Virus record (IMG/VR): IMGVR_UViG_3300032290_001086
Length of the DNA stretch: 64,000 nt
Source: a virus
Taxonomy: Duplodnaviria > Caudoviricetes
Reading direction: 5' to 3' (one strand)
Under the pieces are notes generated by a model, which saw only the letters and a program-made list of their open reading frames with translations, was not told the DNA's origin and ran no database searches. Positions within the stretch are counted from its first letter, which is position 1. Every line of letters starts with the position of its first letter. Of the stretch, positions 36,187 through 40,667 are shown piece after piece. The position numbers and the translations under genes were made by a program.

Positions 36187-36257
36187 GGGAGCATAGCTTA
36201 ATGGTAGAGCGGCCTGCTTATAACGGGTTGGTCTGGGTTCAATTCCCAGTGTTCCTA
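36187..36257 (+). tRNA. tRNA-Ile(TAT)
   Basis: GCCTG-CTTATAA-CGGGT anticodon arm. Confidence 0.9.
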
Positions 36258-36280
36258 TTAGGAATCGACGGGTTCCTAAA

Positions 36281-36462
36281 GAATGTGGCAGAACAATCCT
36301 TGTGGTTACTCACGGGATAACGCAATAGATTAGAGGTGGTGCTCGCTGTATCGTTGAGAAATCAAAGGTATAGAACTTCCAACCAAGAAGAATCTAGGTA
36401 CTTGGAAATACGGTTGTCAGTGTAACCTTCCAGGTTGTGGGTATGACAGATTCCCACCATTC
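36281..36462 (+). ncRNA. manA-like structured RNA
   Basis: GAATG/CATTC closing stem, GGTGGTGCTCGCTG core, terminal GTGGG..CCCAC; between tRNAs; match recalled, not searched. Confidence 0.65.
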
Positions 36463-36466
36463 ACCA

Positions 36467-36540
36467 CGGGATGTAGCTCAGTTTGGTAGAGCACTCGCTT
36501 TGGGAGCGAGGGGCCGTAGGTTCAAATCCTATCATCCCGA
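36467..36540 (+). tRNA. tRNA-Pro(TGG)
   Basis: CTCGC-TTTGGGA-GCGAG. Confidence 0.95.
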
Positions 36541-38546: not shown

Positions 38547-39128
38547 ATGACTATTTCACAAGGACTAGTTGACAAAGAACACGAAGAGGCTGGATTTGAA
38601 ATAATCCACCTCTCTTTTCGTAAGAGAGAATCATGCCATCTTTATGGCGGCCCAGTAAACTATTACGTTGGTAACATTGTATTTCGTCTTACAGATGAAG
38701 ATGCTATCAATCGTATGAAGTATTACATGCAAGAGAATGAAGACATTCGTGTAGCAACAGACCTAGAGTTGATGGAGAAGTATTACGAAGACCTTCACTT
38801 TGTATTTGGTGAATCAGAAGAACTTGATGAGGAACATGATGGTGAAAAATATACACCACTTGATATTCGTAACAAGAATGGTATCAAGGATGAAGATGTA
38901 TTCATTCGTGCCCATCGTCGCAACATGGCACCGCTCCATGGATTCGTTGAATACATTGAGAAATTCAATTGTTATCGAATGCACGAATACTTCCAGGACA
39001 CCCCAGTGGTTCATGGTATAATGCAGTATCTCCAAGACATGAAAGATGGTAAACCGAATCCTAGCCGCACTGTCTACCATGAGCAGTTCATCAACACCCT
39101 TGAAAACCTCTGCTGGTGGTGGGACTAG
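38547..39128 (+). CDS. Hypothetical protein
   Basis: 193-aa ORF ending WWWD. Confidence 0.7.
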   Translation: MTISQGLVDKEHEEAGFEIIHLSFRKRESCHLYGGPVNYYVGNIVFRLTDEDAINRMKYYMQENEDIRVATDLELMEKYYEDLHFVFGESEELDEEHDGEKYTPLDIRNKNGIKDEDVFIRAHRRNMAPLHGFVEYIEKFNCYRMHEYFQDTPVVHGIMQYLQDMKDGKPNPSRTVYHEQFINTLENLCWWWD

Positions 39129-39252
39129 ACAATGTGCCAAGTGCAAGACCAAACAACCCCTTGACAGCACCCACTACCAAGTGGTAAAATACTTTCGTTC
39201 TGGATTTTCGTATTATTGCAACGAATGTAATAAACCAAAACCTAGAGATTAA
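39046..39252 (+). CDS. Small CxxC...CxxC zinc-binding protein (start uncertain)
   Basis: CAKC...CNEC. Confidence 0.5.
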   Translation: MVNRILAALSTMSSSSTPLKTSAGGGTRQCAKCKTKQPLDSTHYQVVKYFRSGFSYYCNECNKPKPRD

Positions 39253-39337
39253 TAAATTCAATAAATATTGATATCACCCAAGTCTCGGAGTAGACTATAA
39301 ACTCTGCCCTGGTCGGGAGCAACCCCTTAAAATTCAA

Positions 39338-39535
39338 ATGGAACAAACAAACTATCGTTCTTTCAAGTTATCAAATGTTTGTGCTGAAATTGAAAGTGTG
39401 ATTACCACACTTAACCAAATTCAATCCCAAATGAATTTGAAAAATTATACTAAACTTCATGAAACGATTCAGAAACTTAAAGAACACAAACAGTATATTT
39501 GGCAAATATACAAAGATTTAGAAGTCTTGGAATGA
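39338..39535 (+). CDS. Small helical hypothetical protein inserted in the RNA array
   Basis: ORF track. Confidence 0.55.
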   Translation: MEQTNYRSFKLSNVCAEIESVITTLNQIQSQMNLKNYTKLHETIQKLKEHKQYIWQIYKDLEVLE

Positions 39536-39574
39536 CTTAAAAAATACCCTGGTGGAGTCAATATGACCCAAATA

Positions 39575-39678
39575 GTCCTCGTCGGATTGGACATAAAATA
39601 TGCCGACTGGTGCGGATGTGGAGGATACTCCCGCCGAGTTTCCAATTTTCTCGTAATCAAAATTGGTGGCGAGCCTGC
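39575..39678 (+). ncRNA. wcaG RNA motif
   Basis: TGGTGCGG...CCCGCCGAGTTTCC...TGGCGAGCCTG with two UGGYG elements and pseudoknot CCAATTTT/AAAATTGG. Confidence 0.75.
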
Positions 39679-39788
39679 AAATGGGGGTTGACAATCTCCA
39701 ACAAATGCCCTATACTGGGTGAGTGAAACCGAACTATGTTACGGTTTCCAACAATATAAATAAAATCTGTAGTTAATCATTTAAAATT

Positions 39789-40667
39789 ATGATGATTCGT
39801 TCATTTCTAACTGCTGGTGTAGTTGCTGCTTCTATTGCAGCTCCTGCGATGGCACAAGTCACCAGTGTATCCCAACTGCGTGATGTACAGCCAACCGAAT
39901 GGTCATACCAGGCTATTTCAAACCTAGTATCTCGTTATGGTTGTGTTGCTGGTTTCCCAGATGGTACTTTCCGTCCTGGTGAACCTGCTACTCGTGCTCA
40001 ACTTGCGGCTCTTACAAATGCTTGTCTAGACCGTATTACTGAGTTCCAAACTGCTGCTGATGCACAACTAGCTGCTGCTCTACGTGCAGAGTTTGCAAAA
40101 GAACTAGGTGCAACTAATGCTCGTGTATCTGCACTAGAAGTTGCTGCTGCTCAGAAAGCACAGGGCGTAGGTAACTACGTTGGTCTTGGTGTTCTTCTGA
40201 ACAAGCAAGGTGTTGATGGTGGTGGTTATACTGAGAATCGTACTATTTCTGGTGCTACTCTTCAAGCACGTTATGCTGTGAAGAACTTCCGTAACCAGAA
40301 TGCAGTTTCAGTTCGTCCTTACCTAAATGCAGTTGCTGGTCCTAACAGCGACATCGGCACTGCTGGTGGTGCTCTAGTTTCTTATGACTGGTCTATTGCT
40401 CGCAAGGCTGGTGTAAGTGCTGCTAACATCTATGGTGGTGTTGGTTATCAAGTTCCTTTCTCTAACGATACACAGGCTAACTATCAGTCTGCTGTTGGTG
40501 AAAAAGGTCAAGTTGTTCTAGCTCTTGGTGTGGAAGGTCGTATTACTAACTCACTAGTGGGTTTTGCTGACCTAAAGTTCCCTACCACAAATGCTGGTAA
40601 TGCTTATGGTGGCAGTGATGCTGCTTACAGTCCTGTGTTTACTACTGGTCTGGGTTTCAAGTTCTGA
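39789..40667 (+). CDS. SLH-domain outer-membrane beta-barrel (porin-like) protein
   Basis: Signal peptide; SQLRDVQPTEWSYQA...RYGCVAGFPDGTF cyanobacterial porin SLH; C-terminal GLGFKF; promoter TTGACA-17-TATACT at 39688-39716. Confidence 0.88.
   Translation: MMIRSFLTAGVVAASIAAPAMAQVTSVSQLRDVQPTEWSYQAISNLVSRYGCVAGFPDGTFRPGEPATRAQLAALTNACLDRITEFQTAADAQLAAALRAEFAKELGATNARVSALEVAAAQKAQGVGNYVGLGVLLNKQGVDGGGYTENRTISGATLQARYAVKNFRNQNAVSVRPYLNAVAGPNSDIGTAGGALVSYDWSIARKAGVSAANIYGGVGYQVPFSNDTQANYQSAVGEKGQVVLALGVEGRITNSLVGFADLKFPTTNAGNAYGGSDAAYSPVFTTGLGFKF

Follow-up and report, generated by a model that had tools for sequence, protein, structure and literature searches.

The 64,000-nucleotide (nt) stretch of viral DNA analysed here (IMG/VR record IMGVR_UViG_3300032290_001086; hereafter the window) comes, by content, from a T4-like cyanophage: its GC content is 35%, and alongside tRNA genes it has a glutamine riboswitch, a group I intron, a manA RNA and a single wcaG RNA. 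We find that the array at 39260–39690 represents the cyanophage wcaG RNA at full length. It is a chain of four modules on the + strand, each consisting of a small H-type pseudoknot whose third loop is A-rich, an invariant UGGY and a hairpin. New here, as judged from sequence comparison, is that UGGY and the 7 nt that follow it are complementary to the 3′ ends of mature tRNAs, including the non-encoded CCA. We put forward, tentatively and at a little under even confidence, the prediction that the array is a multivalent docking RNA for tRNA 3′ ends.

The described wcaG motif is the 3′ half of the array

The wcaG motif was first described by Weinberg et al (2010; PMC2864571). Its published reading is a riboswitch or other cis-regulator, and its published context sugar-nucleotide and high-light genes. 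The supplement of Weinberg et al points to two UGGYG motifs, for which a dimeric protein was suggested as a possible partner, and their original Stockholm alignment annotates one pseudoknot. The flanks of that alignment already hold extra UGGUC and UGGUG units, on which the text is silent. We found no later paper on wcaG structure in the literature after 2010.

An earlier reading of the window from its letters alone (the original prediction) had placed four pseudoknot–UGGY–hairpin units at 39260–39690 and held that only the last part matched the described motif. All four units are found there, base for base, on the + strand (Table 1), and the Rfam model RF01761 indeed covers only 39573–39680, that is, units 3 and 4. 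This match is full-length (model positions 1–98) and, at 51.1 bits, exceeds the gathering threshold of 42 bits. For comparison we used wcaG loci from viral contigs, together with 14 relatives of the window locus that were fetched via a 65-amino-acid (aa) open reading frame (ORF) lying inside the array; covariation statistics for the lineage use the 9 distinct relatives among them.

Units 3 and 4 contain the helices P1, P2 and P3, the pseudoknot over P3 and both conserved UGGYG sequences. In the 9 relatives, the three main helices are 97–100% paired. P1 (the second stem, S2, of unit 3) and P3 (S2 of unit 4) show compensatory changes; the basal P2 helix is 100% paired and varies from GC to GU only, and the distal two P2 pairs are 67% paired. 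The pseudoknot over P3 is formed by the first stem (S1) of unit 4 (CGAG/CUCG), to which we mapped the Stockholm pseudoknot annotation (SS_cons_1) by hand; 97.5% of 40 distinct unit-4 sequences have at least 3 bp here, with seven pair types. Additionally, and unlike in the published motif, the P1 side, which is the first half of the core, also bears a pseudoknot stem, with at least 3 bp in 74% of 54 distinct sequences compared with 47 ± 5% for shuffled partners. The array thus differs from the described motif, which is its 3′ half only, in having two unmodelled units upstream and an ORF inside it.

The UGG is invariant in every unit irrespective of the stems around it. The original prediction had also claimed that the architecture is kept while the stem sequences differ, and this structural reading is right; compensatory stem changes occur in the 9 relatives as well. 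Minimum free energy z-scores of the nested folds are unremarkable (−0.35 to −2.0), so the structural support is comparative and not thermodynamic. We assign the RNA to the + strand because of its G·U pairs, the direction of the genes and the T-runs.

One annotation at a related locus deserves comment. In phage Syn9 (DQ149023), the coding sequence gp208 (163128–163286; 829–987 of our locus L134) spans the wcaG match at 163184–163278, starting 56 nt before it and ending 8 nt after it; gp208 is probably not a gene.

A second module type upstream of the core

Units 1 and 2 belong to a second module type that lies outside the Rfam wcaG model. Indeed, no Rfam family matches them at E ≤ 10, and the wcaG model itself finds nothing at this threshold in 39260–39572. 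We refer to them as type B. Such a unit opens with a hairpin of 4–5 bp that closes a 7–8 nt loop (nYGGnnn); its A-rich tail is followed by a purine, then by CCC or YAC, and UGGUS comes last. A covariance model (R1) was built from 68 distinct type-B units, all from loci outside the window's phage lineage. R1 recovers both unit 1 and unit 2, which are thus more than chance. These are its two best matches in the window, the next having an E value of 0.26, and in a complete 172-kb relative genome it has two matches only, at the corresponding sites. Having only two R1 sites in the window and in the complete genome, the unit was rejected as a dispersed repeat.

The hairpin was a selection criterion for the 68 units and shows four pair types per position. 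The loop-to-tail pair was not selected for. Nevertheless, loop position 2 and tail position −4 (4 nt before UGG) form a CG pair in 55 units and a UA pair in 13, and are unpaired in none. An unselected pair without exception indicates that the type-B unit is a minimal H-type pseudoknot. Within the window's own lineage, S1 of unit 1 is 100% paired in the 9 relatives, with compensatory AU/UA and AU/CG changes (AGUC/GACU, AGAC/GUCU, CGUC/GACG), and its first S2 pair is CG in six and UA in three. The second stem of unit 2 had been called weaker, correctly so, as it has only 2 bp; the first of these is UA in six relatives and CG in three, and the second is G·U in 9/9.

Unit tails are complementary to tRNA 3′ ends

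Since UGG can pair with CCA and Y with a purine discriminator base, we matched the tail of every unit (UGGY and the 7 nt after it) against tRNA ends to which CCA had been added. As a host-type set we used the 38 tRNAs of one Synechococcus lacustris metagenome-assembled genome (MAG), a host that is deduced only; 151 picocyanobacterial-family genomes, chosen via a ferredoxin relative (set G003; see below), served as a stand-in for the host family.

All four tails gave contiguous matches of 8 nt or more, and that of unit 3 matched at every position (Table 1). Random tails of the same composition reached at least 8 nt in 6.1% of trials, at least 9 nt in 2.4% and 11 nt in 0.23%; the 1826 other TGG sites in the window reached 8 nt in 1.0% of cases, 9 nt in 0.33% and 11 nt in none. 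The unit 1 tail also matches host-type tRNA-Pro(CGG) over 9 nt, and 13 other loci carry the unit tail CGGGAUG, which is complementary to this tRNA over 11/11 positions. Across all loci there are 40 distinct tails, 15 of which reach at least 9 nt, and four are perfect 11-mers to different tRNAs (Leu-CAG/GAG, Pro-CGG, Pro-GGG and Ala-GGC). The matching end of tRNA-Leu(CAG/GAG) is present in 143 of the 151 genomes; that of tRNA-Arg(CCG) is invariant in 55/61 genomes, and a further matching end occurs in 120/151.

Together with this conservation across the family, two observations argue for pairing with mature tRNA and against a common DNA ancestry. The CCA is encoded in only 2 of the 38 host-type tRNA genes and in none of the 10 phage ones, so the tails match mature tRNA and do not reflect DNA homology. 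Moreover, where the tRNAs have a G·U wobble (U70 of tRNA-Ala, U71 of tRNA-Arg(CCG), U69 of tRNA-Pro(GGG)), the array has A opposite the U, and hence complements the 3′ strand and is not a copy of the 5′ strand. The codons read by the fully matched tRNAs (CUG, CUC, CCG, CCC, CGG and GCC) are, in addition, frequent in the host-type genome, where they make up 18–66% of their codon families, and rare in the phage (1–7%).

The results suggest a model whereby each module would dock the single-stranded NCCA end of a tRNA on its UGGY. The pseudoknot helix would then stack on the new 4-bp UGGY–NCCA helix, and the next 4–7 nt might let the RNA invade the acceptor stem at its top. An array of this kind could hold up to four tRNAs, probably uncharged, and the outcome of binding might be sequestration, sensing or marking of the tRNA.

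Several points weigh against this model. The commonest unit-4 variant, GUGCAUG (33 loci), makes only five contiguous matches to tRNA-Arg(CCG), or 10/11 with a U·U mismatch, and its perfect partner, CAUGCAC-G, was not found as a tRNA end: the sequence occurs in 3/61 genomes, in none of them preceded by the T-stem sequence of the other matching tRNAs. Similarly, the most frequent tail of unit 2 matches no further than 8 nt, and UGACUCC-A, the end predicted to pair with it perfectly, is absent from the listed host ends. Two predictions of the tRNA reading have therefore failed. The extra units of longer arrays match at most 7 nt. The 7-nt tails are not free, since they also serve as 5′ arms of hairpins within the array (h1, h2 and P2); tRNA acceptor stems are stable, and a helix of only four base pairs is weak unless other contacts are made. 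Contiguous matches to the phage's own tRNAs span 9 nt for unit 1 (tRNA-Pro(UGG), 36467–36540), 8 nt for unit 2 (tRNA-Ala), 6 nt for unit 4 and 5 nt for unit 3, so that units 1 and 2 complement phage and host-type tRNAs alike. Finally, that host is itself a deduction, reached through the ferredoxin relative.

Table 1. Features of the array and its boundaries (window coordinates)
Feature	Position	Strand	Details
T4-late-promoter-like AATAAATA	39260–39267	+	Read from sequence; 13 nt upstream of unit 1
Unit 1 (type B)	39280–39314	+	R1 match, 32.9 bits, E 7e-6
Unit 1, S1	39281–84/39293–96		AGTC/GACT; 8-nt loop UCGGAGUA; CCC spacer
Unit 1, S2	39286–91/39301–06		CGGAGT/ACTCTG, 6 bp, one G·U; UGGUC 39310–14
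Unit 1 tail	39310–39320	+	UGGU CGGGAGC; 9 contiguous Watson–Crick matches to tRNA-Pro ends (..UCCCG-A-CCA)
Hairpin h1	39315–39326	+	GGG AGCAA CCCC, after unit 1; from folding; 92.6% paired in relatives
65-aa ORF	39338–39535	+	Between units 1 and 2; TGA stop 39533–35 inside unit 2
Unit 2 (type B)	39522–39554	+	R1 match, 37.7 bits, E 6e-7
Unit 2, stems	S1 39522–26/39534–38; S2 39528–29/39545–46		Loop UUGGAAU; CCC; UGGUG 39550–54
Unit 2 tail	39550–39560	+	UGGU GGAGUCA; 8 contiguous matches to tRNA-Ala (CUCC-A-CCA); A opposite identity base U70
Hairpin h2	39554–39569	+	GGAGUCA AUA UGACCC; from folding; present upstream of most wcaG cores
Rfam wcaG core	39573–39680	+	RF01761; units 3 and 4 with P2 hairpin 39612–34
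Unit 3	S1 39575–78/39589–92; S2 39581–85/39603–07	+	UGGUG 39608–12
Unit 3 tail	39608–39618	+	UGGU GCGGAUG; 11/11 to tRNA-Leu(CAG) and tRNA-Leu(GAG) (CAUCCGC-A-CCA)
Unit 4	S1 39635–38/39650–53; S2 39642–49/39659–66	+	UGGCG 39667–71
Unit 4 tail	39667–39677	+	UGGC GAGCCUG; 8 contiguous, 10/11 overall, to tRNA-Arg(CCG) (CAUGCUC-G-CCA); A opposite U71
Sigma-70-type promoter	39688–39716	+	TTGACA-17-TATACT; 11/12 consensus matches; 3′ boundary of the array

The array is modular and tolerates inserted genes

The original prediction had a 65-aa ORF inserted between units 1 and 2, and this too stands, since the ORF is a real gene and such splits are common at wcaG loci. It is open in all 9 distinct relatives and has a third-position bias, with variable sites distributed 25/18/44 over the three codon positions. 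Its 18 homologue clusters are all unnamed or hypothetical only; the ORF itself matches nothing in PHROG and nothing in Pfam above cut-off, and none of the homologue clusters has a Pfam domain. It is, then, a gene of a small hypothetical protein family. In the window only, its frame stays open for 52 more codons past the TGA, through units 2–4 to 39691. Stop read-through or frameshifting at unit 2 was rejected, because relatives (loci L120–L123) have an in-frame TGA in the P2 region.

Type-B units lie upstream at 59 of the 62 distinct wcaG loci with enough upstream sequence. Of these 59 arrays, 31 are contiguous, mostly in the order B-B-A-A or B-A-A-A, and 28 are split. The gap in the split arrays always holds an ORF (58–89 aa, in one case 246 aa), and splits come after unit 1 or unit 2, with none within the Rfam core. 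In Synechococcus phage Sf-FS3, the core is separated by ~760 nt and two annotated genes from a pair of B units upstream. Compared by eye, the cargo ORFs fall into several families with no evident likeness. At locus L073, near-identical units 3–4 and the same downstream gene are preceded directly by one B unit, with neither the ORF nor unit 2, which argues that the ORF and unit 2 together behave like an inserted cassette. The number of units per array varies from 2 to 6. In Syn9 the order differs, the GAGUCA..GACCC hairpin coming last, and no canonical type-B unit is present.

There is a single array per phage genome of 170–216 kb, and the wcaG copy number was one in each of four phage genomes (4/4), which also served as the positive control. 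With this control positive, a search of the 151 picocyanobacterial-family genomes with wcaG and R1 gave no match.

A possible protein partner in place of tRNA

Because ORFs are tolerated between units and the unit number varies, a multivalent docking platform fits the array well. To this extent the original prediction of a multivalent sponge is partly supported, though the sequence evidence points to tRNA 3′ ends over a protein ligand. The nearest rival to tRNA docking is nonetheless a multivalent protein-binding RNA, in which the single-stranded UGGY(S) between two helices would bind a phage or host protein and the array would titrate or recruit it. The same beads-on-a-string layout, with two to six units and ORFs among them, suits this explanation equally. 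In the manA RNA of these phages a hairpin loop, GUGGUG, is conserved; the RNA-binding repressor RegA is encoded in 4/4 phage genomes; and the dimeric protein suggested by Weinberg et al (PMC2864571) was proposed for just this duplicated UGGYG. Protein binding leaves unexplained, however, why the 7 nt after UGGY should be position-specific and complementary to tRNA.

Specific partners also fared poorly. CsrA, the classic partner of sponges with GGA loops, was not found (PF02599; 0/151 picocyanobacterial genomes and 0/4 phage genomes, with positive controls in E. coli, B. subtilis and T. maritima), and a CsrA sponge was rejected. The phrog_481 protein precedes 27 of 53 arrays, and the first unit encodes its last codons. 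It occurs neither in the window nor in one complete relative, and is thus not an obligatory partner. We regard a protein-binding array as unlikely, although it retains a real chance.

A possible trap for host tRNAs

A more specific form of tRNA docking would make the array a phage-made trap for host tRNAs, withdrawing the isoacceptors for the host's dominant G/C-ending codons from translation or stress signalling. The targets would be tRNA-Leu-CAG/GAG (CUG, CUC), tRNA-Pro-CGG/GGG (CCG, CCC), tRNA-Arg-CCG (CGG) and tRNA-Ala-GGC (GCC). The phage, with 35% GC, makes almost no use of those codons and brings its own tRNAs for AGA, CCA and GCA, so that it would keep translating. We consider a trap of this kind unlikely.

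The array ends at a promoter

At its 5′ side, the array has no uniform start. The TAAATA of the late-promoter-like element is kept in 5/7 sequence types of the window lineage; in other lineages only 5/53 arrays have it no more than 60 nt away from the first unit, and a late promoter was rejected as a general feature of the array. A few arrays begin directly after a tRNA gene. A tRNA lies within a few hundred nt of 11/69 arrays, about as expected from the locally high tRNA density. Usually, the first unit overlaps the stop codon of the preceding ORF. Where this ORF encodes phrog_481, the C-terminus of the protein varies with the overlapping type-B unit (..DDEDTDGL, ..EDTESL or ..DSVSSQN; for example L056 6821–7075, and many other loci), and the RNA unit seems, from these sequences, to dictate the C-terminal peptide.

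At the 3′ side, a terminator hairpin with T-run follows 55 of 65 other arrays. Most of the 65 listed arrays show a −35-like TTG hexamer (TTGACA or TTGCAT) in the terminator loop and TATAAT behind the T-run. The corresponding stem-loop is good in relatives of the window (GGGGG..CCCCC), and weak and without a T-run in the window itself; both hexamers of the window promoter, TTGACA-17-TATACT, are invariant in 15/15 aligned sequences. Composite terminator/early-promoter (PeSL) elements are known in T4-like phages, where they shuffle cassettes (PMC2839356, PMC4122927). The 3′ boundary of the array resembles them in its order of hairpin with a −35 box in the loop, T-run and −10 box. Unlike in a PeSL, the window hairpin is weak and the T-run missing, and the PeSL-like element is the boundary only, not the array.

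This arrangement bears on two further explanations. In the first, which the original prediction had offered beside the sponge, compact pseudoknots at ORF ends and before a terminator would act as nuclease-blocking, mRNA-stabilising punctuation that stops RNase J, RNase E or 3′ exonucleases. H-type pseudoknots that are mechanically stable typically have A-rich third loops, and both the overlap with the upstream stop codon and the terminal hairpins would suit such a role. A roadblock, however, needs neither an invariant UGGY nor tRNA-specific tails, and it accords poorly with ordinary fold energies and a single array in each large genome; we consider it improbable.

The second is the published reading as a tandem riboswitch or cis-regulator of the downstream gene, in keeping with the published gene context and with the terminator that follows most arrays. 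In the window, and in most other loci, a consensus promoter separates the array from the gene supposedly regulated, so that the array lies at the 3′ end of a transcription unit and not within the leader of the next gene. Nor is the published 5′ untranslated region context of exopolysaccharide and high-light genes found, the downstream gene in the window being a porin-like one with an S-layer-homology (SLH) domain, behind its own promoter. Downstream genes differ even among close relatives, which have either the porin-like SLH gene or a tRNA gene (read from T-arm sequence, with no tRNA finder); in L073 and L015 a tRNA-Gly stands ahead of the porin-like gene. Tolerance of ORFs of up to ~800 nt between units, and arrays that start directly after a tRNA, likewise argue against cis-regulation, which we judge quite improbable.

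Finally, a DNA-level repeat for recombination (PeSL-like) or a tRNA-gene remnant, without RNA function, would suit the ORF cassettes that come and go between units and the cassette shuffling by PeSLs (PMC2839356, PMC4122927), but is very improbable given the compensatory changes and G·U pairs in all stems and a complementarity that includes CCA, which tRNA genes do not encode.

Neighbouring genes and host

The gene downstream of the array (39789–40667) encodes a protein of 292 aa whose N-terminus looks like a signal peptide and which has an S-layer-homology domain (PF00395, E 1e-10); the protein resembles cyanobacterial outer-membrane porins. Between the sigma-70-type promoter and this gene lies a perfect 7-bp hairpin (GAAACCG 39725–31/CGGTTTC 42–48), and a T4-late consensus, TATAAATA, stands ahead of the gene at 39755–62. 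Both are conserved in relatives that retain the porin-like gene.

Upstream of the array, a 68-aa ORF (39046–39252) with a C-terminal CxxC...CxxC zinc ribbon and weak PHROG matches to endonuclease VII and HNH overlaps the end of a 193-aa ORF (38547–39128). Its 3′ end is kept in relatives and in phage S-CREM1. Further upstream, the manA RNA (36258–36467, 107.7 bits) is adjoined on both sides by tRNA genes (36187–36257 and 36467–36540), and since these are flush with its ends, tRNA processing would excise it. The GUGGUG hairpin loop in the Rfam consensus of manA RNA contains the same UGGUG as the wcaG units, and the 3′ end of the manA RNA reads ..UUCACCA-C.

The phage ferredoxin provided the link to a host. 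Its nearest relative in the genome_contigs set is on a 1.5-kb contig (L136; CAZRFN010000182.1; 83% identity) that is binned as an Acidibacter MAG and is probably a mis-binned phage fragment. The next-best matches are to freshwater Synechococcus, which suggests, by sequence similarity, a freshwater or estuarine host.

Relation to known RNAs and significance

Recognition of the tRNA NCCA end by a short RNA sequence has precedents in T-box leaders (UGGN) and in the L15 loop of RNase P RNA (GGU). As in these, the single-stranded UGGY between helices in the array complements R73-C-C-A. With T-boxes the likeness is confined to the logic of UGGN–NCCA pairing: there is no T-box match in Rfam at E ≤ 10 in 39100–39800, and the array lacks Stem I and a specifier. 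It differs from T-boxes also in having four sites per RNA and a complementarity that continues into the acceptor stem, and in being phage-encoded and not the leader of an aminoacyl-tRNA synthetase gene.

The CsrB/RsmZ sponges share with the array a short motif repeated on hairpins, and the type-B loops (ACGGAUG and similar) resemble their GGA loops. Unlike in those sponges, the GGA is not invariant (GGG and GGU occur), and CsrA itself was not found in the hosts and phages searched. Like the modules, small H-type pseudoknot aptamers such as preQ1-I and SAM-II combine a short P1 with an A-rich third loop and pair loop to 3′ tail in a short P2; the array differs from them in giving no Rfam match and in having four or more copies with different stems and the same UGGY.

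wcaG has been an orphan riboswitch candidate, without a ligand, since 2010, and tRNA 3′ ends would give it a concrete, testable partner. That the described motif is half of an array, that a promoter cuts this array off from the next gene and that its tails complement tRNA shift the experiments to be done from metabolite screens to tRNA binding assays. If true, docking would make this the first phage RNA to recognise tRNA acceptor ends in trans, and would link cyanophage tRNA islands, codon-usage mismatch and host take-over in viruses that are among the most abundant in oceans and lakes.

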